From Nitrospirota bacterium (lineage in GTDB: Bacteria > Nitrospirota > Thermodesulfovibrionia > Thermodesulfovibrionales > UBA9159), in the NCBI GenBank assembly GCA_963699545.1, contig CAVOUE010000006.1, positions 160,001 to 224,000 of the forward strand: a stretch of 64,000 nucleotides of DNA, read 5' to 3'. Under the pieces are notes generated by a model. That model saw nothing but the letters and a program-made list of their open reading frames with translations. It was not told where the DNA came from and did no database searches. The translations under genes and the position numbers were made by a program. Of this stretch, positions 1 to 55,475 are shown piece by piece (position 1 is the stretch's first letter; each line of letters starts with the position of its first letter).

Positions 1-171
1 AAGGCAGTGTCGGGAGCCAAAACAAAAAGAGAGACAATAGAGAAAGCCCTCAGGGAGTTCATCAGGAGGAAGAAAGCGATGAAGCTCCTCGACCTCGAGG
101 GGAAGGTGGAGCTTTCTTATACGGTGGAAGATCTGCTCGAGAGGAGAAAAAGGGATGTTCCTCATCGATAG
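1..171 (+). CDS. vapB: VapB-family antitoxin, 5'-truncated by the window edge
   Basis: Frame 1 reads KAVSGAKTKRETIEKALREFIRRKKAMKLLDLEGKVELSYTVEDLLERRKRDVPHR* and overlaps the start of a PIN toxin. Confidence 0.8.
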   Translation, partial: KAVSGAKTKRETIEKALREFIRRKKAMKLLDLEGKVELSYTVEDLLERRKRDVPHR

Positions 172-544
172 CTCTGCGTGGATTGAGTATCTGAGGCCGG
201 GAGGATCGCAGAAGGTCAAGGAAAGAATCAGAGATGTCCTGCAAAAGGGAGAGGCCGCGTGTTGCGGCATAGTGGTTGTCGAGATACTCAGAGGTGCGAA
301 AAGCGAGAAGGACTTCAACTCCCTTCGGGACTCCCTTCTGTCCCTGCCCCAGATACCGATAGATGACGCCGTAATTGAGAGGGCTTCGAAATGGGGATAC
401 ATGCTTGACAGAAAGGGAAAAGTGACTTCGACCACAGACCTCCTTATTGCGTCGGCTGCATACAAAAAGGCCAGCCTTTTGCATCTCGACAGGGATTTTG
501 AGATGATAGGGTCTTTGGTCGGCCTGGCGGGGGAAAGACTGTAA
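155..544 (+). CDS. vapC: VapC PIN-domain toxin
   Basis: LIDSSAWIEYLR...EILRGA...TTDLLIASAA...LLHLDRDF PIN motifs, 129 aa. Confidence 0.9.
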   Translation: MFLIDSSAWIEYLRPGGSQKVKERIRDVLQKGEAACCGIVVVEILRGAKSEKDFNSLRDSLLSLPQIPIDDAVIERASKWGYMLDRKGKVTSTTDLLIASAAYKKASLLHLDRDFEMIGSLVGLAGERL

Positions 545-568
545 AGCCTTGTTGAGGAGGTTCAAGAA

Positions 569-934
569 ATGAAGGTAAAGAAAGTGAAGATAGGGATAAA
601 GAGCATTGGAGAGGCCCTTGAGGATGCAAAGGAGATCATGAAAAAGCTTGAGCGCGGAGAAAAGGTGAAGAAAGAGACCGGCGTCTACTTTACGAGCCTT
701 GAGGCCTTCAGGAAAGCGGTGACACCGAAAAGGCTGGAATTGCTCCATATTGTCAAGACAAGGAACCCTTCTTCCATCAACGAGCTCGCCAGGATGGCGA
801 AGCGGGACATCAAGAACGTGGCTGATGACGTGAAATACCTTGAGCAGATCGGGCTGATCGAGAAGAGAGAGATGAACCGGAAAACAAAACCCGTCATCAA
901 CTATGACCGGATCGCCCTGGAGATAGCTGTATAG
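569..934 (+). CDS. Winged-helix transcriptional regulator / putative antitoxin
   Basis: TPKRLELL...SINELARMAKRDIKNVADDVKYLEQIGLI; RBS GAGGAGG. Confidence 0.75.
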   Translation: MKVKKVKIGIKSIGEALEDAKEIMKKLERGEKVKKETGVYFTSLEAFRKAVTPKRLELLHIVKTRNPSSINELARMAKRDIKNVADDVKYLEQIGLIEKREMNRKTKPVINYDRIALEIAV

Positions 935-957
935 ACGCTTTAAAGCTCCAGGATAAA

Positions 958-1179
958 GCTTGTGAAAGTGCTAAAGTTGAGGATGCGACGCCGAGGGACC
1001 TTCGGCATAAAGCTATTACGGACATGAAACGTGCCGGGTTTAACGATGCGTTTGTTGGAAATGTCGCCGGTCATAGTGATCCGAGGACAACGAAAAGATA
1101 TACTCATTTTTCAGTGGAAGAAACAAGGATGCCTTTGCAGGCGTTGGCTGGCAAAAACTTTCTTGAAGCGGGTGGCTGA
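958..1179 (+). pseudogene. Tyrosine recombinase/integrase C-terminal fragment 1
   Basis: ACESAKVEDATPRDLRHKAITDMKRAGFNDAFVGNVAGHSDPRTTKRYTHFSVEE...* contains the xLRH, GH and catalytic Y motifs; no N-terminal part; absent from the ORF track. Confidence 0.85.
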
Positions 1180-1182
1180 AAA

Positions 1183-1377
1183 ATGAAGGTGCGTGATATT
1201 ATTAAACTAGTAGAGGGAGATGGATGGTATATTGTCGTTACTAAAGGCAGCCATAGGCAATATAAACATCCTACGAAGCAAGGTAGAGTGACGATAGCCG
1301 GACATTCTAATGATGATCTGGCTCCGGGTACTCTCAATAGTGTTTTGAAACAGGCAAAGCTTAGGGAGGTAAAATAA
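1183..1377 (+). CDS. hicA: HicA toxin
   Basis: GWYIVVTKGSHRQYKHPTKQGRVTIAGH...GTLNSVLKQA. Confidence 0.92.
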   Translation: MKVRDIIKLVEGDGWYIVVTKGSHRQYKHPTKQGRVTIAGHSNDDLAPGTLNSVLKQAKLREVK

Positions 1378-1378
1378 T

Positions 1379-1588
1379 ATGCATCGATTTCTTGTTGTGA
1401 TCGAAAAAGCAAATGGCAACTACTCTGCATATTCGCCGGATTTGCCGGGTTGTGTTGCAACCGGGGTGACTCGTGAAGAAGTGGAAAAGAATATGCACGA
1501 GGCTATTGAAATGCACGTGAAGGGCTTATTGGAAGACAAGCTTCCTATTCCCGAATCTCAATCTTTTGCGGAGTATGTGGAAGTTTAA
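1379..1588 (+). CDS. hicB: HicB antitoxin (short form)
   Basis: YSAYSPDLPGCVATGVTREEVEKNMHEAIEMH, directly after hicA. Confidence 0.92.
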   Translation: MHRFLVVIEKANGNYSAYSPDLPGCVATGVTREEVEKNMHEAIEMHVKGLLEDKLPIPESQSFAEYVEV

Positions 1589-1732
1589 GCGGACATGAAA
1601 AAAACAGGGTTTAATGATGCATTTGTCGGCAATGTTGCGGGGCATAGTAATCCTCGAACAACAAAGAGGTATACACATTTCTCTGTAGAGGAAACAAGGA
1701 AGCCATTTCAAGCTTTGTGTCTTAAGAAATGA
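1589..1732 (+). pseudogene. Tyrosine recombinase/integrase C-terminal fragment 2
   Basis: ADMKKTGFNDAFVGNVAGHSNPRTTKRYTHFSVEETRKPFQALCLKK*; 37/42 aa identical to fragment 1 over DMK..QAL. Confidence 0.85.
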
Positions 1733-1768
1733 GGGCAAAATGCCGCTGAGAGAAGAAATCCGGAATTC

Positions 1769-2484
1769 ATGGCGACACTTCGCAAGGCTGGACAAATGAA
1801 GCCACCTCGCTATTTGTATCGGTATATGTCGTTTAAGTACTTGGAGAGCATACTTGCGCATAAGACACTCTATTTTTGTGATTCAGCGGTTTTTAATGAT
1901 CCTTTCGATTGCAAGGCGACTTTCTCAGCGGACGGAGTTGGTGGAGCTATTGAGAAGAAACGTATAGCTTTCGAAGAAGTATTGAGAGATATGAGTGCTA
2001 AATGGGGAATATTATGCTTGAGTGAGATTCCTGATGATATCCTGATGTGGGCGCATTACAGCGACGGCCACCGAGGTGTTGTATTGAGGTTTTTGGGGGC
2101 GGGTCTTTCGGAACTCGGTTCTTGCAGAAATGTTCAATACCACGATAGTTTAGTAGATTATCGAGCTTTTGAGGACGCATGGAAGGAGCCGGGAAAGCAA
2201 TTCGAACAATTCGTGCTGAGAAAATCGTGGCATTGGGAATACGAAAGGGAATGGAGGGTTGTTGACAAAGGCGTTGGGTTCAAAAAGTTTGCTCCGGAAA
2301 TGCTTACGGCATCATTCTTGGCTGCCAGGCGAACTCCCGCCATACGGAGGAAGTACAAAAATATAGAGCGCAGTATGGCATAAACGTTGATGTGTTTAAA
2401 GCAAACAAATCGCGAAACCGGTATTGTGTGGAGATTGAATTATTGAAGGAGGGTGGTTCAACTTTTGCAGAAAGTGCTGCTTGA
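1769..2484 (+). CDS. DUF2971-like protein, one frameshift near 2305
   Basis: LYRYM...FNDPFDC...ILCLSE..DDILMWAHYSDGHRGV...KSWHWEYEREWR; the GIILGC C-terminus continues in another frame to the stop at 2484. Confidence 0.75.
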
Positions 2485-2585
2485 TATTATTGGATTATTT
2501 TTATTATAAGATTTATTATTTAGGAGGCAGTCATTTTGGAACAAATGTGTTCTAATCAGGTGAATAAGTTCATTTCATTTTGTTC

Positions 2586-2631
2586 ATTCGTAATCAGCAG
2601 GTCGGGAGTTCGACCCTCCTCCCCGGCTCCA
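2586..2631 (+). mobile_element. 3' half of tRNA-Thr(CGT): attachment-site (att) scar 1
   Basis: ATTCGTAATCAGCAGGTCGGGAGTTCGACCCTCCTCCCCGGCTCCA = anticodon loop, T-arm, acceptor 3' strand and CCA; no 5' half upstream. Confidence 0.85.
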
Positions 2632-2895
2632 TTAAAAAATCAAGCAGAAATCAATGCTGTGGAAAGCGGGCTATACCCTTTTCCACAGTACGATCCTCCA
2701 AATATCCAGAAGGAGAACAAGCAAATGAACAAGCGGCTGAACAGTTCCGAGGTTCTTTCAGCCCTGCCTGTGTCAACAGTGTTGGATATTTCGGTGGCTG
2801 CTTCTCGAATGCTTTCCCGTGTAACCTTTCTCTTGGTCTCAACGTCTAAGATTATAGAAGGGATAACTATCTAAGACAACGTAAGAGGAGGATTT

Positions 2896-3300
2896 ATGAG
2901 AAAGATCGTTGTAACGCTTATCGTTGTAAGTCTTCTATCCTTAACATCCGCAGCACCAGTGTTTGCCCACGGATGGGTCATTCCTGCGGCCATTATCGGT
3001 ACGGTAATCAATCTTGCAGCCACAGCAGCCGCAGCACCAGCGACATACGGTTATGCGCCTGGAACATACTACGCTCCTGGAGCGTACTATGCGCCAAGAG
3101 TATATGCAGCACCGACGGGATATTATGCGCCAAGAGCGTATGCAGCACCGACGAGATATTATGCGCCAAGAGCGTATGCAGCACCGACGAGATACTATGC
3201 GCCAAGAGCGTATGCAGCACCGACGAGATACTATGCGCCAAGAGCGTATGCAGCACCGACGAGATACTATGCGCGGAGAGGGTACTATCCCGTCAGATAA
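2896..3300 (+). CDS. Secreted Tyr/Ala/Pro-rich repeat protein
   Basis: RBS GAGGAGG, signal peptide, then (YYAPRAYAAPTR)n. Confidence 0.75.
   Translation: MRKIVVTLIVVSLLSLTSAAPVFAHGWVIPAAIIGTVINLAATAAAAPATYGYAPGTYYAPGAYYAPRVYAAPTGYYAPRAYAAPTRYYAPRAYAAPTRYYAPRAYAAPTRYYAPRAYAAPTRYYARRGYYPVR
3085..3270 (+). repeat. 36-bp tandem repeat, five copies plus a partial
   Basis: Unit TAYTATGCGCCAAGAGCGTATGCAGCACCGACGAGA, head-to-tail with no spacers, in frame. Confidence 0.95.
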
Positions 3301-3395
3301 TTGGCTTTTATACAGATATGATTATTCAAAAACGTTGCGGAAATCATAGCAGCAGTATATATATATATATAAGAGAGAGAGAAGAGGCGAGAAAA

Positions 3396-4826
3396 ATGAA
3401 AACATCAGCTATCATCCTGAGCGTTTTCATGTTATTTTCGATGTCGACTGCAGTAAACGCGCTGGCTGAACAGAAAATCCCAGGGCCTCCGCTTGCGCAA
3501 TCGCTGGTCAGAGAGGGCACCTTGACGGTGAATCTCGCTAACGCCCTGAAAATAGGTTCGCCTACAAACGAGGCCGAAGCCGAGAGCGCCTTGACATCAG
3601 CCGGGATAGCGCCCCGAAACGGGTGGATTGGAGATTATCCGGTCACACCCGATGTGGTCATCGAGCTGCGTAATGCCGTAGGCAGTGCTGCAGACTCCAA
3701 ATGGCTGAGCATGAACAAACAGGAAGCCCTGAATGTCTTTGACAACGTCACGAAGGACTACGAATTGCCGGTTTCAGCCGCAAACGCGGGGCCGACAGTC
3801 AGCCCCGATACATCACCGGGCACGGATCCCCCTGACCCAACGGTTATAAACGACTATTACACCCAGGAAGGCCCGCCCGTAGTGACCTACTATGCGCCTC
3901 CGGCAGACTACTCTTATCTGTATAACTTTGTGCCCTATCCGTTCTGGTGGTTGAATGCCTGGTTCCCGGGATATTACATGCTGGCGGACTTCATTGTGCC
4001 GTTGTTTGGATACGGGTGCTGGCACCACGGCTACTGGGGCGGTTACGGGTACGGTTATTGGGGAGGCTATGGACGCTATGGTTACTGGGGCGGCTATGGT
4101 TATAACCATTGGAGGGGTTACGATCATGACGGACATCCTGGCGGCCATGGTGGTCATGGGGACGACCGGTATGCCGTCAGCAACCATTACCGTCATCCTG
4201 ACGGGGGTGCGTCCCATCGCATCGACCCTGCAAACAGGGCTCACGGCGGCTTCAGCGACGGAAACCGTGCAGGAGGACAGAGATGGGCAACCCCTGCCGC
4301 ACAGAGGAGCGCCGGCGCGATTTACAACCGGAGTTCTCATGTGAATACGGCAAGAGACAGTGTGAATATGCGCCAGCCCGTGAACAACAGGACAGGTTAC
4401 AACAGAGACTACAATCCTAACAGTGGAAGGTCGGTCAACGCTCCATCGAGGTCTTATTCGGCGAACAGATCCTTTAACAGCCGCACAAAGGCCTCTACCA
4501 GACGCGGCAAAACACGTATTCTCGGGCAGGATGGCGGTTACAACAGAGGCTACAATCTACAGGGAAGGTCGGTCAACGCTCCGTCGAGGCCTTATTCGGC
4601 GAACAGATCCTTTAACCAGCCTGCACAAAGGGCCTCCTACCAGACACGGCAAAGCATGTATTCCTCGGGTAGAGGAAGAGGTTATAACGCGTCTTTCGTA
4701 GCCAACAGGGGTCAGTCTGGTGTCGGCGGACGGAGTTTCTCCGGCGGACATGGTTCTTACGGGGGTTCCTTTAGCGGGAGAGGCTCCTTCAGTGGCGGTC
4801 GCCGGGGCCAGAGCGGAAGAATGTAA
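3396..4826 (+). CDS. Secreted protein with YW/G-rich segment and RG/S-rich low-complexity tail
   Basis: Signal peptide MKTSAIILSVFMLFSMSTAVNALA; YWGGYG repeats; internal duplication near 4395-4480 and 4537-4616. Confidence 0.7.
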   Translation: MKTSAIILSVFMLFSMSTAVNALAEQKIPGPPLAQSLVREGTLTVNLANALKIGSPTNEAEAESALTSAGIAPRNGWIGDYPVTPDVVIELRNAVGSAADSKWLSMNKQEALNVFDNVTKDYELPVSAANAGPTVSPDTSPGTDPPDPTVINDYYTQEGPPVVTYYAPPADYSYLYNFVPYPFWWLNAWFPGYYMLADFIVPLFGYGCWHHGYWGGYGYGYWGGYGRYGYWGGYGYNHWRGYDHDGHPGGHGGHGDDRYAVSNHYRHPDGGASHRIDPANRAHGGFSDGNRAGGQRWATPAAQRSAGAIYNRSSHVNTARDSVNMRQPVNNRTGYNRDYNPNSGRSVNAPSRSYSANRSFNSRTKASTRRGKTRILGQDGGYNRGYNLQGRSVNAPSRPYSANRSFNQPAQRASYQTRQSMYSSGRGRGYNASFVANRGQSGVGGRSFSGGHGSYGGSFSGRGSFSGGRRGQSGRM

Positions 4827-5299
4827 GTGAGCTGCTTTTCCTGAATTGCTCGGCAGCCATAATCCACGGCTGCCGGGCAAAAAAGAAGATTAATGCCCAT
4901 CTCGCGAGGCATGAACAGAAGAAGGAAGAAGAAACCTCGCTGAAAACAGGCTCTCCCGACTCACCATTTCTTCCTGAAATGCTGATTTTGGCTCTTGTAT
5001 TAGCCACTCAAGACTTGATAGCGAAATCGATAGAACAAATGCAGCTGTCAATCCTGAGCGTCAAGATGTGATTATGGGCTTGCCACGTTAAGGGAAATAG
5101 ACGTTGACGGGTCGAGATTTGACTGTTACTATGTAGACATAAATAAGCGATCCCGACAAGACTAAACCCTTCGATAGGAGGGGACAGAAAGCGGCGGGTC
5201 TTTAGGGCGAAGATGGCCGAGCTACCGAAGGATAAGATTGAGGTATGTTCGGCCATACTTTTTGGGCAAGATGATGTAAAGGCACTAAGGAGGTGCACT

Positions 5300-6349
5300 A
5301 TGGAATAAAGTGGAATGAACCGCAGGGATTTTCTGAAGTATTCCGCAGCAACCGGGTATCTGATTGCAGCCGGAGAGGGATTGATAGACAGGCGTGATGG
5401 CAGAGGCTGCCACGGGTGTCACCGAAGTGGACAAATTGACGATTTGGGTCCTGGCAGACAACTATTATGACACTAATGAACCGGACACCAAAATCACGAA
5501 GCGCTACCGCTCAGTGGCCGGGAAATCGATTCACGCGCAACACGGTCTTTCTTATTATATCGAGACTGTTATCGGCGGAAAGACAAGCGCCTGCATGTTC
5601 GATTTCGGACTTGACCCTGCGGACGTGATGAGCAATATTGCGTTGCTGGGGCTTGATATTGGAAAGACAAATGCCTTCAGCCTGAGCCACGGCCATTACG
5701 ATCACTATACGGGCGCGGTCAGTATCCTCAAGCAGAACCAGTCGCGGATCGCCGCAGGGACACCATTTTATGTGGGCGAGGAGGCCTTTGCCCGGAGATA
5801 CACACTCCGCCCCGGAGCAACTGAACCTACAGACCTTGGACAACTGAGTAAAGAAGATATCGAAGCCCTTGGGCTAAAGGTTGTGGAGGCGAAAACCCCG
5901 GTTGAAATTGTTCCCGGTGCGTACTTTACCGGAAACATAGAGAGGGTCACGAGCTATGAGAAAGTGCCTGCGAGTTCATCAAATAAAGCGCGGCGAGAAG
6001 ATCGAATCACGACACTTTTCCGGGTGAGCAGGCTGTTTTCTTTAACGTAAAGGGAAAAGGCCTGGTGGTTCTTTCCGGTTGTGCGCATTGTGGAATCGTC
6101 AATACAGTCAAACAGGCGCAGAAAAGTGCCGGAACAGACAAGGTTCATGCGATAATGGGAGGGTTCCATCTGATTATTGCGAAGCCTGAGCTTATTCAGA
6201 GCACAGTTGCCGATATCAAAGCGATGAAGCCGGACTATATCGTGGGGACCCATTGCACCGGGTTCAGGGCGATGGTGGCTTTCAGCAGGGAAATGCCCGA
6301 CGCATTCACCCTGAATACGGCAGGAACAAAGTATACCTTTGGCGCATAG
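5300..6349 (+). CDS. Tat-exported MBL-fold metallo-hydrolase, frameshifted
   Basis: MNRRDFLK twin-Arg at 5315; HGLSY, LSHGHYDH, SGCAHCG, GGFHL and HCTG motifs across the ORF pieces. Confidence 0.8.
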
Positions 6350-6374
6350 GATTTTAAAGATAGGGACAATAACA

Positions 6375-6407
6375 CACAAGGGGAAGTCGAATACGACTTC
6401 CCCTTGT
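6375..6407. terminator. Hairpin after the MBL gene
   Basis: ACAAGGGGAAGTCG-AATA-CGACTTCCCCTTGT. Confidence 0.6.
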
Positions 6408-6516
6408 GAAGGTTTGCTCTTAAAAATCCGCATTTGTTTCAATTTCTGATACGTGTTGGCTCGTCGGTGAAAGCCGCACCCGCGATCCGGGCTCATGAGA
6501 TGCACTGAAGCCGGTT

Positions 6517-6891
6517 TTGTGCCATACTCCTACTATGGGAGGAAGAGAGCGGCTCTATCAGACCATCACTCTCGTTGTCATTGTTCTGTTCCTTGAACTT
6601 GCTCCATGGGAAGCAGGAGTGGCGTTCTCCCTGGGGGTGATGGTGAACATCTGGATTCACGCGAACATCTGGGTGGACCTCGGGCCCGTGCAAGAGATTT
6701 TTATCGCTCCCAACTACCACAGGGTCCATCACGGGGCACGGGGACTCTCGAACAAGAACCTCGGATTTATCCTGACCATCTGGGATAGAATGTTCGGTAT
6801 CTATGTCAGCCCACGGTCAGTGGGGAAGGACTTTGCCCTCGGTTTCATCCCGACACGGAACCGTCTTCTTCGCATGATCGTGGGTCTGTAA
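6517..6891 (+). pseudogene. C-terminal part of a sterol desaturase / fatty-acid hydroxylase family gene
   Basis: WIHANI...PNYHRVHH...NKNLG...IWDRMFG; the N-terminal His boxes are missing. Confidence 0.7.
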
Positions 6892-6945
6892 GACTCCCGC
6901 GGGCGCTTATCTCACATCCGCCCTGTTTGCGAGGACACGTACTTC

Positions 6946-6973
6946 AGGAGTTCAACTCTCCTCCCCGGCTCCA
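6946..6973 (+). mobile_element. Second tRNA-Thr 3' fragment: att scar 2
   Basis: AGGAGTTCAACTCTCCTCCCCGGCTCCA matches the T-arm and acceptor end of 2586-2631. Confidence 0.75.
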
Positions 6974-7280
6974 GTTATTCTAAGCTTTGTCCACTGCCGA
7001 TTGACCGCTGGCTGTGCACTTTGTTTCACTTCGCTCGTACCGAGCATACTGTTCTGTATACTCCCGGTGGAAATATCTTTGATAGAAAGCTTTCCTCTGG
7101 TCCCACGGAATTCATATTAACTTCACACTTATAAGCTATCCTAGCCTTCTCAATTTACTTATGCCGGCTATAAAAGGAGGTGAACACTCTCTGTTTTGCT
7201 CTTCTCTGCGCACAGGAAGTCGAACGAACGGCATATTCCGTGTTTATCATGAACAAATAACATCAAAAAAGGAGGCTCGC

Positions 7281-7821
7281 GTGAAAAAGTTAACAGTGAT
7301 AGTGGCAGTAGTTTCCCTCGTTGCATTGGCAGCCGTTGCATATGGACAAATGGGCGGTCACAGTATGGGCTCAGGAATGCCGGGTGGCCCGGGAATGGGA
7401 TGTGGAATGATGGGCGGTGGCGGCATGAGTGGTCGGATGATGGAGCCCGAACATCAGATGTGGAGAACATCTTGAGAGCCTTAATCTTGATGAACAGCAG
7501 AAAACTTCCATCTCAGAAATGAAGAGCAGAATGATGAAGGAGGCGGTCAGGAGAATGGCAGACATGCGTATCGCCCACATCGAACAGAGGGACCTCCTCG
7601 CCAAAGACCCTGTGGATATGAAGGCAGTTGAAACAATAATGAAACAGACAGAGCTATTGAGGACCCAAATGCAGCTTTCCCGCATAAAGGCAATGGAAGA
7701 AGTCAAAACAAAGCTGACGCCTGATCAGAAGAAAAAGTTTAGAGAGACGATCGCGACCGGACCCATGGCGGGCGGAATGGGGATGATGCACTGCCAGGAG
7801 TGCCCCATGACAAAGGAATAA
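7281..7821 (+). CDS. Spy/CpxP-family periplasmic protein, frameshift near 7470
   Basis: Signal peptide, G/M-rich segment, LNLDEQQK and LTPDQK motifs. Confidence 0.75.
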
Positions 7822-7946
7822 GGCCAACCTTGTCTGCGAAACGATAAGGTCAGTTCTCTGAGAAACAAATCGGGGGAGAGGGGGAGAAGGACACACGCCC
7901 TCTCCCCTTTTCATATCCTCCGAGCATTCAACCCAGCGGATTACCC

Positions 7947-8361
7947 TCAGATGTATCGCGGATCCGCGGAATTAAATTCGGATGCGGAGCCTGATGCAAA
8001 ACTTTTCAGAATCTCCGGAATCTTGTTGTATTCGGTGAGTTTGTCGACAAGGAAATCCGCTTTTTCGGATACCCTCTTCTGATACCGGCAACAGGCCTCG
8101 CTGGTGAGCAGTATCACTGCAGGAACGGGGGTGATCTTTCTGATGCTCTTGATAATGTCAATGCCGAAATGCCATTGGGTCTTTGCGTCCATGAGAATGG
8201 CATCGGGTTTCATTATGCGTATGAATTTCAATGCGCTGAGAGGGTCTTTCGTCTCGCCGATAATCCGCACTCCGGGCAGTGTCAGAATGAGTTTTCTGAA
8301 CCACCGGCGAAAGAAAAGGAGACTCATCCACAATCATGATCCTCAGTTTCTTCATCTTCAT
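7947..8361 (-). CDS. Stand-alone response-regulator receiver domain, frameshifted
   Basis: MKKLRIMIVDE...KPDAILMD...VILLT...FLVDK. Confidence 0.7.
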
Positions 8362-8473
8362 GCCCTCCTGCTGATACAATGCTACAGGAAGAACATTGCT
8401 TTTCGATTAACTTCTGATTAATTTTTCTTAATGTCCCGTGCTGAAGCGTGAAAGTGCGAACCGGGAAAGGTAA

Positions 8474-10414
8474 TTACTGGAATCTGATCCGTTCTATCGC
8501 CATCGCGCCGAGGCGGGCAACGTTTTGAGAACCACCCGTTTTTCGGTGTTCATCGTTTTTTCGACTCCCCTTGAAATCAAATCCAGCGACCCCAATGATC
8601 TCCTCCCCTGACATCATGGGAAGGTAGTATGCTTTGGACTGCGGCAAGGTACCGGTGCCACGACCCGCTGACTGTTTGTTGAGCAAAACCCATGACGCCA
8701 CCCCGATCACCTGAGGGTTGACCTCAAATTCTGTGGTCTTGGCCCGGACAATCAGCTCTTCATTCTCCGGCAGAAAGATCGACCATTTCGCAGGGGAATA
8801 TCTCCAGCGTATGGCGAACCATGATGGAGAGGACCTGGTCGATGGTGTGAGCGGTCACCAGATCCCTGCTCAAACCGTAAAGCCCTATGTTCTTCAGCTC
8901 GCTCTGCTTGAGCATCTCGACTTTTCCGCGTAATTTGGACGCAAGATTGCTGATCACCACCACGACGATGATGTACACGATGAACGAAAAGAAGTATTGC
9001 ACATCGCCGACCGCAAGACTGAAGTGCGGGAGAGACAAAGAGGTAGTCAAAGATCAGAATGCTCGTGATCGCAGCCACGATGGATGGTCCCTTTCCCAGA
9101 TAGAGCGCACTCAAAATGACGGGCAACAAAAGCAGGAAGAGCAGATTGACCTCATTGAGAACGTGGGCGCAGGAGAAAGGCGATGAGCGACACAATGCCG
9201 ACGGCGAGAATACCGAGCGCGTAATTGATGGGCTGGAAAACGATAATATGCTTCTTGGGCATGAGCCTGGGATCGACCTTGGCATCCAGCAGATAGATGT
9301 CGATGTTGGGTGTTCTGGTCAGAAGTTTCTTGGGAACAGACTGAAAGAGTCCAAAACGAGGTTTCCCGATGACGATCTTGGTCACATTGTTGTTCCGCGC
9401 ATAGTCCGCCATCTCTTCCATCACATCACTTCCCTTGATCCAGACCAGGCGTGCTCCCAACTGTTTTGCCAGGTCCATCGCCTTATTCAGCCATTCTTTT
9501 TCCTTCTCGGAAAGCGTCTTGTGTCGTTCCGTCTCCACATAGAAAGCGATCCATTCCGCGTCCATATCGTTTGCGAGCCTGAACGCCGCGCGTATCAGTT
9601 TCTCCGCGTAAGGACTGGCAAATACCCCGGCAAGGACACGGTCCGTTGCAGACCACGGTCCCGCTATGGCATGGGCCCGCATATACGTGCGCATCTTCTC
9701 GTCCACGCTGCCTGCCACTGCCCGGAGCGCCAGCTGCCGGAGCGCCAGCAGGTTGCCGGGACGGAAAAATTTCTGCACCGCGCTGTCTGCCATGTCCTTT
9801 ACATAGACCTTTCCCTCATGGAGCCTTTTCAGCAGTTCCTCGGGCGGCAGATCGACCAGCTTGATCTCATCTGCTGCTTCAATGACGGTGTCCGGCACCG
9901 TCTCGCGCACACGGATATTCGTGATCTGATGGACGATATCGTTGAGGCTCTCCACATGCTGCACGTTCATAGTGGTATAGACATCGATACCCGCATTCAG
10001 TAGTCTCTTCTATGTCCTGATATCTCTTGGCATTACGAAGATTCGGGGCATCGGTATGGGCGAGCTCATCCACTAGCACCAGTTTCGGTTTGCGCGTCAG
10101 AACCTTTCCCGAGATCGACTTCCTTGAGCGGTATCCCCATATACTTGACGACGAGAGGCGGACAGGATCTCCAGGCCTTCCAGTAAGGCATCGGTCTCGG
10201 GTCTGCCGTGGGTCTCGACATAGCCCACCACCACGTCTATCCCTTCCTGTTTTCGCTGGCGCGCATCAAGAAGCATCGCATAGGTCTTTCCCACGCCGGG
10301 GGCAGACCCGAAGTAGATGGTCAGCTTGCCGCGCCCCTTTTGAGTTTCCTCTTTTTGGGCCAGATCGAGAAGCGCTTCAGGAGATGGTCTTTTGTACTCT
10401 TCGTCTTCAGCCAT
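8474..10414 (-). CDS. kdpD: KdpD sensor (KdpD-N, USP, TM, GAF) without a histidine kinase domain; frameshifted
   Basis: RGKLTIYFGSAPGVGKTYAML, LVDELAHT, NVQHVESLND, GNLLALRQLALR; ends at LGAMAIERIRFQ*. Confidence 0.85.
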
Positions 10415-16588: not shown

Positions 16589-16604
16589 ATTTCAGCCTTT
16601 TGCC

Positions 16605-16732
16605 CTTCCAAACGCCTACGAGGTTAGCTGACGGGCTCGGGCCTGGAAGTGCCCTTTTCCCGGGTATCCCGGAAAATACGCCCCAAATGCTTGGGTCCCC
16701 CGCATCCATTCTTTGAATGGATCTCGGCTGCT
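16605..16732 (-). ncRNA. c-di-AMP riboswitch (ydaO/yuaA class)
   Basis: Minus strand ...ATCC...GGATGCGGGGGACCCA...TTTGGGGCG...GAGCCCGTCAGCTAACCTCGTAGGC, upstream of K+ uptake genes. Confidence 0.9.
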
Positions 16733-16744
16733 ATGTAATTTTTA

Positions 16745-40023: not shown

Positions 40024-41632
<1,609 letters not shown>

Positions 41633-41692
41633 AAAAGTGCAAAACGGTTTACTACGCACTTTTTAGATAAAGGGCCGGGGAAACTGGACCTC

Positions 41693-41769
<77 letters not shown>

Positions 41770-41894
41770 ACCAATTTTGCGTCGTGCAAGATTGGGGTTA
41801 TTAGTGATTAGTTGTTGGTTCGAGGAAAAATCTTTTACTGATAGCTAACCGCTGAGAACTGACAACTAGAGAATTTGCCAGGCAAATTCTTGTC

Positions 41895-41970
41895 GGGGGT
41901 GTAGCTCAGCTGGGAGAGCACCTGCTTTGCAAGCAGGGGGTCATCGGTTCGATCCCGTTCACCTCCACCA
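41895..41970 (+). tRNA. tRNA-Ala(TGC)
   Basis: Cloverleaf, anticodon loop TTTGCAA, CCA end. Confidence 0.97.
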
Positions 41971-42063
41971 ATAAGAGAGTTCGGCGTTCAGCGTCCAATG
42001 GTATAAGAACGTTGAACTTTGAATAGTTTTTTTGTTCTTTGACAACAGAAGGGAAGAAGTAAG

Positions 42064-45304
<3,241 letters not shown>

Positions 45305-45336
45305 TTATTTATTCCCTCCTGTTGTCAAAGAGCTTA

Positions 45337-45437
45337 GGGGACTGTCCATATTTACGGACGCCTGCCTGCCCGGTAGGCAGGGAACGAAGTGAAGTCGTAG
45401 AACCTGCCTGTCCGGCAGGCAGGTAGGGACTGTCCCA
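45337..45437. repeat. REP-like palindromes in the 23S-5S spacer
   Basis: Two CCTGCCTG..CGG.AGGCAGG hairpins flanked by GGGACTGTCC copies. Confidence 0.7.
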
Positions 45438-45501
45438 GCAAGAGAAGTTCCTTGCTTTTTGCTCTTTTGAAATGCTAAACTTTTTGCACCGAAATCAAGT
45501 T

Positions 45502-45616
<115 letters not shown>

Positions 45617-45627
45617 TTAAAATAAGG

Positions 45628-50687: not shown

Positions 50688-50909
50688 TTAGCGAAGGTCT
50701 TTATCGGTGAGGATTCCTTTCTTTTTTGCCTTTCTCGACCAGTAACCCTGTATCTCCTTGAGTTCCTTTCCCAGCCTTTGACTTCTTGCGATACGGAGGG
50801 CATCCTGGATGATCCCGCTCAGCGTCTTCCCTTTTTCAGCGGCCATGTCTTCAGCCTCTTTCGCAAGGTCAGGGGGAAGAGAAATAGTCCTCCTTACAGC
50901 TGTCGCCAT
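50688..50909 (-). CDS. CopG/RHH antitoxin-like protein, orphan
   Basis: RRTISLPPDL...KTLSGIIQDALR...AKKKGILTDKDL; no toxin gene follows. Confidence 0.7.
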   Translation of the reverse strand: MATAVRRTISLPPDLAKEAEDMAAEKGKTLSGIIQDALRIARSQRLGKELKEIQGYWSRKAKKKGILTDKDLR

Positions 50910-51050
50910 GCCATCACCTCCTGGTATGAATAAATACTGCCACAACCTGCGAGGAAAGACAACCATACCCGCCTCGTGACTTACGATTTACGTCTGACGG
51001 ACTTCAGGAGAAAATGGGATGTGTCCCTGGTTTTCTTCCCTTGTCGGGTA

Positions 51051-51431
51051 TCACAAGCCATCCAATTCCTTAAGGGCATCCTCCAGTTCTCGAATGGTGG
51101 CTTGCGATTGTCTAAGCACTTTATTGAGCATATCGGGATATTTCTTAACCACCTCCACCATTTTGTTCCATCCTTCTTTGCTCAATCGATATTCACCTTT
51201 TCGAATAAAGTCCATGTATCCTTTGTCTCGCATATTTTGGATAGTTTTTTGGATAGTCTGTTCAGGCTTTTCAGGACTTTCTTTGTGACCAAGCATAGCC
51301 GTAAGGTTAACTGCTAAATCAAGATTTTCGGCTGACATAAGCTGACGACGCAAGAAAATGCGATTGTCGTGGCTCAGCATCTTATTAATAATCAAAAATA
51401 CAGCAGTTCTCCCAGTTTGACCTCTCAACAA
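51051..51431 (-). CDS. Stand-alone DpnI-C-like winged-helix protein
   Basis: PEQTIQKTIQNMRDKGYMDFIRKGEYRL resembles the QxLRDxGxIEFxxxGxY motif. Confidence 0.55.
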   Translation of the reverse strand: MLRGQTGRTAVFLIINKMLSHDNRIFLRRQLMSAENLDLAVNLTAMLGHKESPEKPEQTIQKTIQNMRDKGYMDFIRKGEYRLSKEGWNKMVEVVKKYPDMLNKVLRQSQATIRELEDALKELDGL

Positions 51432-51476
51432 GTCTCGTGATTTCTGGCATCTCTACTTCCTTTCTGTTCCACCTTT

Positions 51477-51674
51477 TCACTTGGATTTTCTCTTACCCTC
51501 TTCTTCCATGAATGCAGCGAATTCATCGATGGAAACTCCGTACCACTTCTTTGAGTTTTTTCTTGCCCAGTGCACGCCGCTCGGCTTGATGCGGATGTGG
51601 CCAACAACCTTGTTTCCATCATCCACAATCTTAAAATCATGAAACTTTTCTGGACTAAATCTGTTCGTTGACAT
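51477..51674 (-). CDS. 65-aa hypothetical protein
   Basis: Strong RBS AGGAGG; starts 14 nt after the radical SAM stop. Confidence 0.7.
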   Translation of the reverse strand: MSTNRFSPEKFHDFKIVDDGNKVVGHIRIKPSGVHWARKNSKKWYGVSIDEFAAFMEEEGKRKSK

Positions 51675-51688
51675 CGTGATCCTCCTTC

Positions 51689-52810
51689 TTACTCAGAATA
51701 GACCTCTCGTGGAGTTGTGATATATCTTCTCTCGACTCCGTCAATATATCGTCCAGCTGGCAAATCGAGCATAATAGCGATGTTCTGTCTTCTTACAGCT
51801 CTTCTAAAAGCCCTGACCTGTTTATCTGTCCAGCCTTTGTGAATATAATACTCGCTTTCGTCCTGCCTCTTGGCATTTGGCCTGTAGTTATCAGAAATAC
51901 TATCCAACGGTCTAAACCTACAATCTATCACTCTGACTTGCCATCTGCGGCAAGCATCGAGTTTTGCTCTCATCTCCCCGTATGACAAATCATGGTTGAA
52001 GAGCACGAAAACAAATATATCGTCCGCCCGAAATTCTGCATCTCTTAATACCTGTATCTGCTCTTTGATTTTTGGCCAATGTGTATAAGGTCCGTCCCAT
52101 GCGATACGAGGATGCTGAAAGCGTGCTTTCTTTAAGTAAGTAGCAATTTCAGGATATTTAATAAGAATTCGCCCATCCAGGCCACTTTGACTCTCGCAAC
52201 GTACTCTGCTTTGATCAGGGAATTTGAAGTTTGTTATTTCAGAAAGGATATCTTTGATATAAGGGTTGGCAAGAAGATTATTGTCATAGAAAACAATCTT
52301 CTTTTTCCTGATTTCATCTTTGACACTTTTTTTATATGTGACATCAGGTTCGATTTTCCATGTGCCACAAAAATTGCATTTTCTGAAGCAGCCTCTCGAA
52401 GCGTGGACAATTTGATAGTCCACATTTACCAAATCATAGGCCGGTTTCAAGTTTTCCGCCTTCCCTTCTCCGTAAAGACCCGGTCTCACATAGTCGCACC
52501 CTGATGCCTTCGCATGTTCAGGCATCAAGGATGCATATATCCCCCCCACCTCCATTCTTGCGCTGGGATAAAGCTCTTTATAATACTTGACACTTTCCCA
52601 AACTTGCCTTGACCAGTACGTGAAAAGAGATGTTACTTTTATTTCATCGGGATAGCTCTTTGCCTCAAAGTTGCCTCGATGTAATTCAACGCTGTCCCCA
52701 ATGCTTCTATGATAAGCGGCGATCTTTAAAAGACCAATGGGTAAAAAGTTACAGTGGTTCTTGCTCTTTGCAGGAATCGGGAAATTAGGTTCGACAAGCA
52801 ATATATTCAT
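51689..52810 (-). CDS. Radical SAM enzyme with an N-terminal B12-binding-like domain
   Basis: ILLVEP...PIGLLKIAAY...VTSLFTY...GGIYASL; SRGCFRKCNFC; FYDNN. Confidence 0.85.
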   Translation of the reverse strand: MNILLVEPNFPIPAKSKNHCNFLPIGLLKIAAYHRSIGDSVELHRGNFEAKSYPDEIKVTSLFTYWSRQVWESVKYYKELYPSARMEVGGIYASLMPEHAKASGCDYVRPGLYGEGKAENLKPAYDLVNVDYQIVHASRGCFRKCNFCGTWKIEPDVTYKKSVKDEIRKKKIVFYDNNLLANPYIKDILSEITNFKFPDQSRVRCESQSGLDGRILIKYPEIATYLKKARFQHPRIAWDGPYTHWPKIKEQIQVLRDAEFRADDIFVFVLFNHDLSYGEMRAKLDACRRWQVRVIDCRFRPLDSISDNYRPNAKRQDESEYYIHKGWTDKQVRAFRRAVRRQNIAIMLDLPAGRYIDGVERRYITTPREVYSE

Positions 52811-54234
52811 CTCAATTTACCATTTGTCAGAACATAGTTATATATGTTTTCAAAAATGGTAATTGCATTATTCGGGGATAACTTAATATCGGTTGGATGT
52901 GCGCAATCGCACCGGGTCTGATAATTTCCTCGAAGAGCGTTAAATTGTGTTACCGTCAGTATTTTTTTATAAACCAGATAGCATAATAAATGCAAGTCAT
53001 TGCTTCGGATTAGGAGCTCATCGAGAGAAGAAATGTTTTTCTGAAAGTCCTTCGCAAAATGTTTCCATGCTGATGTCCGGTTATCAAACATCGCCTGAGT
53101 AGCGTCATTAAAGTCTTTAAGATTCGTGCCAACATATTCCAAAATTCTACTGATACAACATGACCAAATCATTAAAGTGGATGCCTTAAAGCAGTGTATT
53201 TCAAGGCAAAATAATGCTTCAGAAATATATTCATACTCGTTTTCCGTAAAACTGCCGCCTATTTTTTCAATAGCGGTTCTAATATCAGTTATGGATGCCT
53301 GCTGTTTGACTGACACTTTTATAGTTCGAGGACTGTAAACCAAAGGTGATGTGTATTTCATCCTCTTTTTTAAGCCCGGCTTAGTGGCTGGCTTTCTTAG
53401 CCCCTTTTTGGTCTTCTTCGAAGGTTCCGTAAGGTTCTTGAATTCACCGAGAGTTTCGCTGAGGGACTTTTCCTTTTTCTCCAAGAAATTGATCAGCAAA
53501 TCTTCAATTTCACTCTTTGGCTTGTCATGTGAGAAAACTTCCTTAAATTCATCCATGAGGAAACGCGTATTTATTAGCTTCCCTTCCAAAGCCTTCTGTA
53601 TCAGAATTTCCCGTACTTTGTCCTCGCCATATTTTTTGTAGATATCAGAATATTTCTTGCGAAGAGGGCTAATAAAGTTCGCCTCTATCTGAACTAGATA
53701 ACTCATGGACAATTCCTTGGCAAGCACCCTCTCTATTATTTTGTCATCGTATTTGATCAACCTTAAAAGATCAGTAATTTCATGTGAGGTATGTGAAGTC
53801 ACCTCCTCGACATTTTTTCTAATGGCGGCTTCTGTTATGTGAGGATTTGCTTCTTTAAGATCGAAGATAATTTTCTTAATCGCCTTGGTTTCTGCGGCCT
53901 TATCCCAATTTTCCCTTAACATATGAACTTGATATGCCAAGATGCGGCCGTCAGTGTCATCTTTAGCTATCAAGACGGGGACGTGGGATAGCTCCCCCGC
54001 AAGCGATGCCCTAAGCCTTCTTTCCCCATCTATAAGAATATAGGAATCAGCTTTCTTGACGTCAGGTTTCACAATCAATGGCTCCAGAATTCCATATTCC
54101 TTTATGGAGTTAACTAATTTACTGAACTGGGGAGATCCCATTATTTGCTTTTCCGAGAGTCCTCTGGGATTATTCTTATCGAAGGAAATATTCTGGGGGA
54201 TGATAAAATGAAGTTTTCTTTGCAATGTTTTCAT
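52807..54234 (-). CDS. ParB/Srx N-terminal domain protein with a C-terminal HEPN-like domain
   Basis: NNPR...LVNSIKEYGILEPLIV...LIDGERRLRA; C-terminal EALFC...KASTLMIW...RCDCAHP. Confidence 0.8.
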   Translation of the reverse strand: MKTLQRKLHFIIPQNISFDKNNPRGLSEKQIMGSPQFSKLVNSIKEYGILEPLIVKPDVKKADSYILIDGERRLRASLAGELSHVPVLIAKDDTDGRILAYQVHMLRENWDKAAETKAIKKIIFDLKEANPHITEAAIRKNVEEVTSHTSHEITDLLRLIKYDDKIIERVLAKELSMSYLVQIEANFISPLRKKYSDIYKKYGEDKVREILIQKALEGKLINTRFLMDEFKEVFSHDKPKSEIEDLLINFLEKKEKSLSETLGEFKNLTEPSKKTKKGLRKPATKPGLKKRMKYTSPLVYSPRTIKVSVKQQASITDIRTAIEKIGGSFTENEYEYISEALFCLEIHCFKASTLMIWSCCISRILEYVGTNLKDFNDATQAMFDNRTSAWKHFAKDFQKNISSLDELLIRSNDLHLLCYLVYKKILTVTQFNALRGNYQTRCDCAHPTDIKLSPNNAITIFENIYNYVLTNGKLR

Positions 54235-54612: not shown

Positions 54613-55149
54613 TCACTTTCTCCGCAGTCTTTTAAGGAACGCTTGATATTTTTCCCCATGTTCTTCTTTTTCCGACCACCGCTTCACTTCTGAAAGGCTC
54701 ACCTTTTGAAGCTTGGCGACCATGAGCGCCTGCTCCAGCGCCTGCGGGTCATTCCAGTGGTAATAAGCCGCCAATCTGTCCTTCACGCTGTCTGTTGGTG
54801 TCAGTAGCACCACCGTGCCAAGCCTTGTCTTCAGCTTCTCTTTGCCCTTGAGTGGTTCACTGCCTACCGCAGCAGGTGGGGAAACAAATTCAATAAAGAA
54901 AGGGCAGTCGCTGCGCATGAAATGGCGTGAACTTTCCTTCCGGAAACCGGCCTCCTCCATGACAGAGGTCACTTTCTTTATAGTCGCATGAGCGACGAAA
55001 TCAAGATCGAAAGACATGTATCTGTTCTTCGTGTAAATGGAAACACAGGCGCCGCCCACAAGGATCGCGTCGATCCCTTTTTCCTGAAGTTTTTCAGATA
55101 TGACCGCAGCCAGTTCCTTAATCCCTATCTGCTTCCAGTCAATGCTCAC
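54613..55149 (-). CDS. Nucleotidyltransferase-fold protein (type IV TA toxin-like)
   Basis: ILVGGACV...SFDLDFV...DSVKDRLAAY. Confidence 0.7.
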   Translation of the reverse strand: MSIDWKQIGIKELAAVISEKLQEKGIDAILVGGACVSIYTKNRYMSFDLDFVAHATIKKVTSVMEEAGFRKESSRHFMRSDCPFFIEFVSPPAAVGSEPLKGKEKLKTRLGTVVLLTPTDSVKDRLAAYYHWNDPQALEQALMVAKLQKVSLSEVKRWSEKEEHGEKYQAFLKRLRRK

Positions 55150-55475
55150 AGCGGCTTGCCCGCCCTTCTCGGCCTCGTGCGCCTGCTGTAAAACTTCTCC
55201 CTTTCCTTCTCCGGTATGAATTCGTATGCCCTTGCAATCAGGGCTCTCAACTCCTCCAAAAAAGGATACCTCGGGTTAAGCGTATATATTCTCACCCCGC
55301 CCACAATACGGCTTACCACGATCCCGGCATTTTCGAGCCGCCTCAGCTGCTGCTGAATCTTGTTCACCGGTTCTCCAAAGGTCTTCGCCATACCGGAGGC
55401 GTAGCCTTCTCCGTATACGTGGAGGGTAAAGAGTATCTTTTCGATTGTGATATTGCCGAACATTCCTTCAAGCAT
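55146..55475 (-). CDS. Winged-helix protein, partner of the nucleotidyltransferase
   Basis: EGYASGMAKTF...IQQQLRRLENAGIV...YTLNPRYPF; 4-bp overlap with the next gene. Confidence 0.75.
   Translation of the reverse strand: MLEGMFGNITIEKILFTLHVYGEGYASGMAKTFGEPVNKIQQQLRRLENAGIVVSRIVGGVRIYTLNPRYPFLEELRALIARAYEFIPEKEREKFYSRRTRPRRAGKPL

Follow-up and report, generated by a model that had tools for sequence, protein, structure and literature searches.

A ParB-type/radical SAM gene pair in a Nitrospirota genome and its relatives: a candidate family of restriction-modification-like systems

Four co-oriented genes in an AT-rich segment

The stretch analysed here, 64 000 nt of a Nitrospirota genome (GenBank assembly GCA_963699545.1, contig CAVOUE010000006.1, positions 160 001–224 000; 'the window' below), carries at 51051–54234 four co-oriented genes, all on the minus strand, the first two of which are the subject of this report. 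The upstream gene (52807–54234) encodes a 475-amino acid (aa) protein with a ParB-type N-terminal region, termed ParB-X; it is followed by the gene for a 373-aa radical S-adenosylmethionine (SAM) protein, termed rSAM (51689–52810), by a gene for a conserved small protein of 65 aa (51477–51674) and by an open reading frame (ORF) of 126 aa (51051–51431) whose true start is uncertain (109 aa are possible from an ATG at 51380). A preliminary description of the window had given exactly these coordinates and had read the four genes as a single cassette, a candidate defence or modification system.

As that description had it, the ParB-X and rSAM genes overlap by 4 bp, an ATGA being common to the stop codon of the former and the start codon of the latter, and the 65-aa gene starts 14 nt past the rSAM stop codon. 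ParB-X has its own ribosome-binding site (GAGGAG), and another (AAGGAGG) precedes the 65-aa gene. The segment is also more AT-rich than its flanks: its GC content of 0.406 is the lowest of any 3.2 kb of the window (mean 0.538, standard deviation 0.028 and minimum 0.457 over 545 non-overlapping 3184-nt windows of it), and the four genes individually lie at 0.39–0.43 versus 0.50–0.52 for the flanking genes. At the segment boundaries the search revealed neither a tRNA nor an integrase nor any convincing flanking repeats, and promoter and terminator scans returned background numbers (9 versus 8.1 expected and 7 versus 6.1 expected, respectively). The surroundings look chromosomal, with an rRNA operon 5 kb from the segment. 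The ParB-X/rSAM pair is horizontally acquired; the shared low GC content and the 14-nt spacing suggest that the 65-aa and 126-aa genes arrived with the pair in this genome and are transcribed with it.

ParB-X joins a ParB-type N-terminal region to a HEPN-like domain

Three regions make up ParB-X: the N-terminal one resembles ParB/Noc, the middle one is helical and the C-terminal one is a HEPN-like domain (Pfam AF_1680, PF27235). Its ParB_N domain (PF02195; residues 13–91, 53962–54198, minus strand) scores above the Pfam cutoff (44.3 versus 26.3 bits, 1.9e-11), and in a profile search with an alignment of 40 family members (A1) residues ~10–179 matched Noc/ParB/Spo0J structures at 6e-14 to 1e-12. 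The motif GERR (G70, E71, R72 and R73; 54016–54027) is invariant in all 40 relatives and aligns to the GERRxRA of the solved ParBs 1vz0, 6t1f and 7bnk; the box that follows it reads VHMLRENW in ParB-X versus the canonical ENLQRE in the aligned ParB structures. ParB-X has 211 homologues, and both PF27235 and PF02195 are present in 114 of the 120 that are listed. In annotated plasmids and phages, two plasmids gave generic ParB N-domain matches only, and the C-terminal domain had no phage match.

A role in partitioning had been considered unlikely from the start, and the gene context agrees: no ParA-like protein was found in the eight neighbouring ORFs scanned, and the neighbours examined showed no sign of a replicon or an integrase. 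ParB-X scores just under the cutoff of the partition-ParB model TIGR00180 parB_part (55.3 versus 58.45 bits), and where partition ParBs have their C-terminal dimerisation region it carries the AF_1680/HEPN-like domain instead.

This C-terminal domain (residues 328–475; 52810–53253, minus strand) is all-helical in its AlphaFold2 (AF2) model (pLDDT 90.3), which has four long core helices (36–50, 54–74, 133–150 and 159–174 in model numbering) with an insert of three short ones between the second and the third. The R-x4-H motif noted earlier near the C-terminus is present (R441-x4-H446, RCDCAH, 52897–52914): among the 40 relatives H446 never varies and at least 90% retain R441, and E333, Y336, E339, C343, M355, W357, D413, P447, T448 and N471 are invariant as well. 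In the predicted model R441 (model R146) sits at the end of the third core helix, and the loop toward the last helix begins with H446 (H151). The same motif position, and inserts between helices 2 and 3, are given as typical of HEPN domains in section 7 of a 2013 survey (PMC3710099); the residue after R441 is C or N in the ParB-X family, and the survey gives it as typically N, D or H (PMC3710099). The top Foldseek matches in the PDB are HEPN proteins (2q00, 2hsb, HEPN-MNT toxins, HepT, AbiV and Csm6), albeit with weak scores: the best, 2q00, has E 0.24, prob 0.98 and TMq 0.40, 2hsb has prob 0.96 and TMq 0.44, and TM values range from 0.40 to 0.47. In the atlas searched, the nearest clusters are those of PF27235 AF_1680 (score 0.87), an uncharacterised family. 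DUF4145, a member of the Pfam clan (CL0291) that also includes the HEPN domains as first defined, appears in that list only at rank 22 (score 0.81). It appears probable from the motif and the modelled fold that the domain is a HEPN RNase, its activity being a prediction; the earlier HEPN claim thus stands for the conservation and placement of the motif and for the identity of the top fold matches, and less well for their scores.

One further comparison was set aside. An hhalign run of alignment A3 against the HEPN_Swt1 protein of a related locus (L012, below) gave 99.6% probability; it was discarded as circular, the L012 protein being itself within A3.

The radical SAM enzyme

Alignment A2 comprises 29 rSAM sequences. 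The CxxxCxxC motif (C141, C145 and C148; 52367–52390, minus strand) is invariant in 29 of 29, and so are C287 and C297 (51920–51952, minus strand). Two further invariant motifs are specific to rSAM, namely DCRxRPL, which contains C297, and the basic C-terminal helix FRRxVRxQN (FRRAVRRQN). The AF2 model (pLDDT 90.2) joins an N-terminal Rossmann module of cobalamin-domain-like type to a radical SAM barrel; its best Foldseek match is AprD4, alongside MiaB, TsrM, MgmA, TokK, CysS, RimO and OxsB (E 3e-10 to 7e-6, TMq 0.52–0.67). The corrinoid protein 1y80 is also among the fold matches, and no viperin is found among the 50 PDB matches listed. Searched by sequence, the PDB gave 0 matches for rSAM and 0 for one of its relatives (P0348), while Foldseek against viral models returned only generic COG1032-type phage proteins at 10–14% identity.

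The designation as a B12/radical SAM enzyme proposed earlier is retained in part. The invariant CxxxCxxC and the modelled cobalamin-domain-type fold favour it; however, the window protein falls under the cutoffs of both Pfam families (Radical_SAM PF04055, 18.6 versus 29.5 bits; B12-binding PF02310, 15 versus 32.1 bits, the latter family being matched at 41.5 bits by the relative P0241), and cobalamin use is no more than possible. AprD4 has a cobalamin-type domain but is not known to use cobalamin.

Homologues of rSAM fall into 2389 protein clusters (90% identity), which the sources label only as 'Fe-S oxidoreductase', 'radical SAM protein' or 'hypothetical'. The best non-self match of rSAM is 86% identical, versus 62% for ParB-X. 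A prediction of the ParB-X/rSAM complex (score 0.00, mark 0.32), whose controls were not folded, counts neither for nor against binding.

A recurrent gene pair and a constant enzyme with exchangeable partners

One genome per species was scanned for related loci. This gave 15 loci (L001–L015), most of them from uncultured lineages, in Nitrospirota, Elusimicrobia, Spirochaetia, Ignavibacteria, Planctomycetota, Patescibacteria, Thermoplasmatota and one unclassified bacterium. The two large genes do co-occur elsewhere, as a functional link between them had implied: ParB-X lies immediately upstream of rSAM in the window, in L002 and in L006, each time with its stop codon overlapping the start codon of rSAM; in L002 and L006, rSAM is 78 and 75% and ParB-X 52 and 55% identical to the window proteins, respectively. 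Moreover, 21 of the 119 listed ParB-X clusters match a listed rSAM cluster by exact contig size, about 1 being expected by chance. ParB-X/rSAM is a recurrent, translationally coupled pair. The four-gene arrangement fared differently: the 65-aa and 126-aa proteins, like the three flanking proteins tested, were each found in 0 of the 15 loci, so that the conserved unit consists of two genes and not of four.

In all 14 loci with a visible upstream side (the L007 contig begins inside the rSAM gene), rSAM is the last gene of a co-oriented cluster and usually overlaps or abuts the preceding gene. What precedes it varies: (i) a ParB-HEPN protein in L002, L006 and the window; (ii) in L014, a fusion of ParB_N with a DpnII/MboI-type restriction endonuclease (REase; 4.2e-26), which is 39% identical to ParB-X residues 7–279, thus retaining only the N-terminal 279 residues of ParB-X and carrying the REase in place of the HEPN-like domain; (iii) in L012, a 393-aa protein with a weakly DpdB-like N-terminus and a HEPN_Swt1 C-terminus (2.6e-8); (iv) a GHKL ATPase with a ~300–346-aa protein in L001, L003, L004, L005, L008 and L013 (the ATPase is Pfam-confirmed in four of the six, and assigned in L004 and L005 by matching N-terminal sequences); (v) a ParB-like protein, a 140-aa protein, an SNF2 helicase and a second ParB-like protein in L009 and L010; (vi) in L011 (positions 1–8269), from an archaeon of the Thermoplasmatota, the series DrmA (1.8e-64), DrmB (1.3e-26), a DrmC-like phospholipase D (PLD)-type protein and DrmE (3.8e-20); and (vii) in L015, a C5 methyltransferase, a type II REase-like protein and proteins of 233 and 292 aa. 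The partners in these 14 loci are consistently of nuclease, helicase or ATPase defence types. NCBIfam PP_RS20740 is matched, always under its cutoff, by the ~300–346-aa partner of the GHKL ATPase and by the 292-aa protein in L015 (five of five cases scanned), and N6/N4 methyltransferase genes come after rSAM in L003 and L012. The 11-kb contig of L011 holds no methyltransferase, and rSAM occupies the methyltransferase position of DISARM; the operon appears to be of the DISARM type, with another enzyme taking the modification role.

To compare partner types with the phylogeny of the enzyme, 38 rSAM sequences were placed in a quick maximum-likelihood tree with SH-aLRT support. The window, with its ParB-HEPN partner, falls in a five-row clade (support 97) with L001, L004 and L005, all of the GHKL type, and forms a subgroup with L001 and L004 (support 84); L013 (GHKL) pairs with L014 (ParB-REase; support 100), and L009 (SNF2) with L011 (DISARM-type; support 99). 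The identities follow the same pattern, the window rSAM being 85% identical to that of L001 and 84% to that of L004, versus the 78 and 75% to L002 and L006 given above. In three groupings, all of loci whose partners were verified directly, different partner types occur together, that is, partners are exchanged. The element that stays constant across this much larger family is rSAM, and not the ParB-HEPN protein; the restriction-like partners are interchangeable.

Several of the loci have features of their own. The pair in L006 has an Mrr_N-GmrSD-HEPN protein (823 aa, 3057–5528) and a HEPN/RES-NTD1-RES protein (440 aa, 8128–9450) as its flanks, and therefore lies in a dense defence island. In L001, a DUF5131 protein (1.9e-83) and a 187-aa partner (2967–4225) are found immediately upstream of the GHKL-type operon. 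In L003 (3444–4268) the gene directly upstream of the rSAM operon encodes a fusion of PLD nuclease and DpnI_C winged helix (1.7e-22), which also matches the methyl-directed REase model mREase_II, and a 174-aa remnant of such a protein (truncated PLD, DpnI_C 1.6e-26) occupies the same position in L002 (5004–5528). The rSAM gene of L012 (1815–2914) is split by a frameshift, and the GHKL gene of L005 (4330–5984) is in two pieces of 232 and 216 aa next to an intact rSAM gene; either case may represent decay or an assembly error.

Fusions, plasmids and phages in the wider rSAM family

An exhaustive search with representatives gave 1311 rSAM-related clusters at 50% identity, of which 443 reach E <= 1e-10 and 85 reach E <= 1e-30; 16 representatives were scanned for domains. 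One of them, P0345 of a sister clade, has a C5 DNA methyltransferase (5.3e-57) fused to the rSAM domain. Another sister-clade protein, P0348, ends in a ParB-like region (NPR...GNRR) with an hhalign match to the profile of ParB-X (E 6.2e-5, probability 65%). Four of the 16 (P0380, P0381, P0365 and P0374) are interrupted by inteins or by LAGLIDADG/HNH homing-endonuclease domains.

Alphaproteobacterial plasmids (13 records) carry rSAMs of 28–30% identity. In the two that were inspected, pNL1 and p187_1, the gene order is PIN, GHKL, DGQHR/DndB-like, rSAM and HSP90-like GHKL; the DGQHR/DndB/DpdB-like gene belongs to the ParB superfamily (TIGR03187, 7e-45) and its end overlaps the rSAM start. In pNL1, an adjacent 769-aa DndB-like protein has a sub-threshold match to HEPN_Swt1 (7.9e-4). 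Phage copies of rSAM are few, with three records, one of them an orphan of Marinitoga camini virus 1; the phage family phrog_9298 is nevertheless a strong match (2.1e-33).

A possible restriction-modification-like function

We tentatively favour the reading that ParB-X and rSAM make up a restriction-modification (R-M)-like system, in which rSAM marks self DNA and a ParB clamp gates a HEPN effector; we hold this proposal to be slightly more apt to fail than to hold. In such a system rSAM would place a mark on the cell's own DNA by radical chemistry, and ParB-X would load onto DNA as a nucleotide-gated ParB-type clamp. On DNA without the mark, or upon another cue from an invader, ParB-X would turn on its C-terminal HEPN RNase, and the active RNase would bring about a growth stop or aborted infection. 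The ParB part may also bring rSAM to DNA, since rSAM has no recognisable DNA-targeting domain. The preliminary description had proposed a writer/sensor/effector module, with which the recurrent pair and the probable HEPN domain agree; its four-gene unit does not survive, and it had missed rSAM as the constant core of the family.

Five observations point to DNA as the substrate of rSAM: its fusion to a C5 methyltransferase, its place in a DISARM-type operon at the methyltransferase position, the repeated presence next to it of a ParB-superfamily gene (ParB, DGQHR/DpdB-like), its fusion to a ParB-like domain and the orphan phage copies. Protective modification enzymes are often found as orphan copies in phages. 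The C-terminal domain of ParB-X would be an effector because an REase replaces the HEPN-like domain on the same ParB scaffold. By analogy, a constant enzyme with swappable partners matches the Dnd, Ssp and Dpd modification cores with their exchangeable restriction modules.

A number of results weigh against this proposal. DNA as the rSAM substrate is deduced from the fusions of the gene and the company that it keeps; rSAM itself has no recognisable target-recognition or DNA-binding domain, has no match in PADLOC, and is unusually conserved for a modification enzyme, so that a small-molecule substrate would fit too. The HEPN assignment is not secure: none of the 500 counted Foldseek PDB matches of the C-terminal domain reaches E <= 0.001, a local Pfam scan of seven ParB-X family members or fragments gave no HEPN match, and a non-circular hhalign comparison (the A1 profile versus a Swt1-type HEPN protein) was negative (probability 0.14). 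Because ParB-X departs from the canonical ENLQRE in the box that follows GERR, its nucleotide chemistry is uncertain. Only a minority of the rSAM contexts contain ParB-X (3 of 15 loci), and the sample consists of only these 15 loci plus three annotated records. The C5-methyltransferase fusion was seen in one of the 16 representatives scanned, in a clade only ~35% identical. Finally, the tree is a quick version, and the partner labels of its P-numbered rows rest on contig-size matches, at least one of which is doubtful.

A bolder form of the proposal extends it to the whole family, and we consider it rather unlikely to be right in full. The rSAM family would install a previously unknown, radical-derived covalent DNA mark that serves as the 'self' label for an entire restriction-type family (ParB-HEPN, ParB-REase, GHKL, SNF2 and DISARM-type) in many bacterial and archaeal phyla, with ParB clamps reading the modification state. 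A candidate for the mark, hinted at by the C5-methyltransferase fusion, is a C-alkylation that extends or replaces ordinary methylation. If the R-M-like reading is right, a radical SAM enzyme would be the modification arm of a broad restriction-type immune family, and new DNA chemistry would join the short list of non-methyl self-marks (phosphorothioate, 7-deazaguanine). A family of 2389 clusters that is now labelled generically would gain a function, and ParB-type clamps would be immune sensors coupled to nuclease effectors. The methyltransferase-less DrmA-B-C-E operon that ends in rSAM raises the prospect that DISARM-like machinery may work with non-methyl marks. The pair, with two genes in 2.5 kb, is small enough for a direct laboratory test. 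Even if DNA is not the substrate, a constant enzyme with swapped partners is a clear and unexplored pattern in defence islands.

The best of the alternatives, which we still consider unlikely, corresponds to the other half of the original proposal and is centred on a nucleotide: rSAM would turn a free nucleotide (e.g. CTP) into a chain terminator or signal, as viperin does, and the ParB domain would bind the nucleotide and gate the HEPN RNase. The invariant GERR nucleotide-binding motif and its alignment with CTP-binding ParB/Noc structures are consistent with this, as is the very high conservation of rSAM, which fits a universal small substrate. The best fold match, AprD4, is a radical SAM 1,2-diol dehydratase, and its chemistry resembles the dehydration of the ribose diol by viperin. 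However, the fold of rSAM is of the cobalamin-domain/MiaB type, with viperin missing from the 50 PDB matches listed, and the ParB domain is missing from most partner sets. The fusion to a C5 DNA methyltransferase, the DISARM-type methyltransferase slot and the DndB/DpdB-like partners indicate DNA rather than a free nucleotide.

A lower probability is given to rSAM as a toxic or regulatory effector that acts on tRNA or rRNA in the manner of MiaB, RimO or Cfr, the upstream proteins being sensors or co-effectors of abortive infection. The fold is similar to RNA-complexed MiaB and to RimO (E 1e-9 to 5e-7), rSAM is paired with an RNase-like HEPN domain, and its basic, invariant C-terminal helix suggests nucleic-acid binding. 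Against this, the N-terminal auxiliary-cluster cysteines of the MiaB type are not conserved, the only invariant cysteines of rSAM being C141, C145, C148, C287 and C297. Orphans in phages would be odd for a toxin, as would the persistence of the L005 rSAM beside a broken partner gene, and the DNA methyltransferase fusion argues for DNA.

It is improbable that rSAM matures or modifies its partner protein post-translationally, or regulates it as an antitoxin-like component. Such a role would accord with the translational coupling to the upstream gene in most loci and with the toxin-antitoxin (TA)-like reading of an HSP90-radical SAM neighbourhood in section 32 of a recent preprint (bioRxiv 10.64898/2026.10.19.760177). 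Yet near-identical rSAMs (84–85%) serve unrelated partners, which would require a single conserved enzyme to act on very different proteins, and the phage orphans lack a partner of this kind. Least probable by our estimate is that the pair serves mobile-element maintenance or unrelated metabolism and lies among defence-like genes by coincidence, these being cargo of the island. Most ParB proteins act in partition or regulation, COG1032-type radical SAM enzymes are mostly metabolic and the near-miss to TIGR00180 shows closeness to partition ParBs, but no parA, replicon or integrase was seen in the neighbours examined, the dimerisation region of partition ParBs has given way to a nuclease-type domain (HEPN-like in the window, REase in L014) and the partners in 14 loci are uniformly of defence types.

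Comparison with known systems

No named system was found for the locus, in agreement with the preliminary description. Neither PADLOC nor NCBIfam has a model for rSAM or for the pair; in PADLOC-DB v2.0.0, ParB-X has only an 18.4-bit match, of its ParB N-domain, to a model of a ParB-containing type II methyltransferase. The full-text literature searched contains no description of the pair, and an earlier published one could exist because most subscription journals lie outside that search. What appears new is that a modification-restriction logic employs a new class of enzyme together with a fusion of ParB to an effector, the ParB-HEPN architecture itself having been known since 2013.

With DISARM, which consists of DrmA, DrmB and DrmC plus DrmE or DrmD and a DNA methyltransferase, the family shares the general logic of a modification enzyme combined with restriction-type machinery: rSAM closes the DrmA-DrmB-DrmC-like-DrmE operon of L011, and other members sit with PLD nucleases and SNF2 helicases. 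However, the window has no Drm genes according to PADLOC, L011 being the only relative with DrmA/B/C/E and rSAM; the modification slot holds a radical SAM protein and not a SAM-dependent methyltransferase, and the effector in the window is a ParB-HEPN fusion.

The cobalamin-domain enzymes TsrM, TokK, CysS, OxsB and MgmA, together with AprD4 and MiaB/RimO, have the same two-domain build and CxxxCxxC motif as rSAM. The window protein differs from all of these in being only 10–15% identical to them, shorter (373 aa) and devoid of their C-terminal domains, and in having its own DCRxRPL and FRRxVRxQN. To our knowledge, none of TsrM, TokK, CysS, OxsB, MgmA, AprD4 and MiaB/RimO takes part in defence or acts on DNA, and prokaryotic viperins (pVips) are the only established anti-phage radical SAM enzymes. 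An analogy with pVips is possible via CTP, which ParB domains bind; pVips, however, have the fold of another radical SAM subfamily, and are single-gene, chain-terminator-making systems, whereas rSAM is embedded in R-M-like operons.

In the Dpd (7-deazaguanine) and Dnd/Ssp (phosphorothioate) systems of DNA modification and restriction, a ParB-superfamily protein (DpdB, DndB) stands beside an unusual DNA-modifying enzyme, and a modification core works with interchangeable restriction modules (in part from PMC10853773). The distant plasmid relatives of the window rSAM come closest to this, being paired with a DGQHR/DpdB-like protein. The window, in contrast, has no DpdA/DpdC, DndACDE or Ssp genes, its chemistry would be radical SAM-based and its ParB, which has GERR, belongs with the canonical ParB/Noc proteins and not with the DGQHR type.

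Fusions of ParB with HEPN were already listed in 2013 in a Swt1-like clade (Saro_3948) with an intact Rx4-6H motif (PMC3710099, Table 1). These have the same architecture as ParB-X, a ParB-superfamily domain followed by HEPN, and in pNL1 the DndB-like protein with the sub-threshold HEPN_Swt1 match adjoins the DGQHR-rSAM-GHKL cluster. The window protein differs in that its C-terminus is AF_1680 (PF27235) and not HEPN_Swt1, with no profile link found between the two; the term 'radical SAM' has 0 occurrences in the text of the survey (PMC3710099). A three-gene neighbourhood of an HSP90-like protein, a radical SAM protein and PAACC (a cyclase-like domain), read as TA-like, is mentioned in section 32 of the preprint cited above (bioRxiv 10.64898/2026.10.19.760177). 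The mention there is a single clause that names no radical SAM family and no ParB-HEPN form. This neighbourhood may be the type with GHKL, a ~340-aa protein and rSAM that was found in 6 of the 15 loci.

The small genes and other features of the window

The 65-aa protein has nine homologues, all of 65 aa and 68–75% identical, none of them on a contig of matching size among the listed ParB-X or rSAM matches; together with the absence of both small proteins from the 15 loci, this led us to reject the four-gene cassette as a conserved unit. The 126-aa protein had been described as a DpnI-like winged helix and, by extension, as a reader of methylated adenine. Its match to DpnI_C (PF17726) reaches 20.8 bits versus a cutoff of 23 (4.6e-4) and covers 25 residues at profile positions 45–69; BLASTP similarity to the true DpnI_C proteins of L002 and L003 spans 23–29 residues of a ~70-residue domain; and the atlas has no family for it. 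The DpnI-like assignment was rejected as a family assignment, and a winged helix in this ORF is possible on the strength of this short stretch.

The cassette had also been said to sit between TA-type genes, for which the flanks are suggestive only. Directly downstream lies a 92-aa ribbon-helix-helix (RHH)-like ORF of normal GC content (50688–50966, minus strand), with matches to DUF6364 (3.3e-4) and RHH_1 (0.043) that are both under cutoff; no toxin partner was identified for it. On the other side, at 54613–55475 (minus strand) and also of normal GC content, are the genes for a 109-aa helix-turn-helix (HTH) protein (55146–55475) and a 178-aa nucleotidyltransferase-like protein (54613–55149), which overlap by 4 bp. 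This pair matches the phage families phrog_18520 (1.2e-20) and phrog_13263 (1.3e-34), and the HTH protein has a weak match to the PADLOC candidate PDC-M05A (6.3e-6); the pair is a conserved one of TA or defence type.

Further away, a complete rRNA operon (40024–45617, plus strand) contains the small-subunit (SSU) rRNA, tRNA-Ile, tRNA-Ala, large-subunit (LSU) rRNA and 5S genes. Its LSU match extends over 3242 nt versus 2925 positions in the model, so the 23S gene may contain insertions. Two riboswitches score above the Rfam gathering thresholds, namely a c-di-AMP riboswitch at 16598–16739 (minus strand, 89 bits) and a c-di-GMP-I riboswitch at 5151–5229 (plus strand, 53.5 bits).

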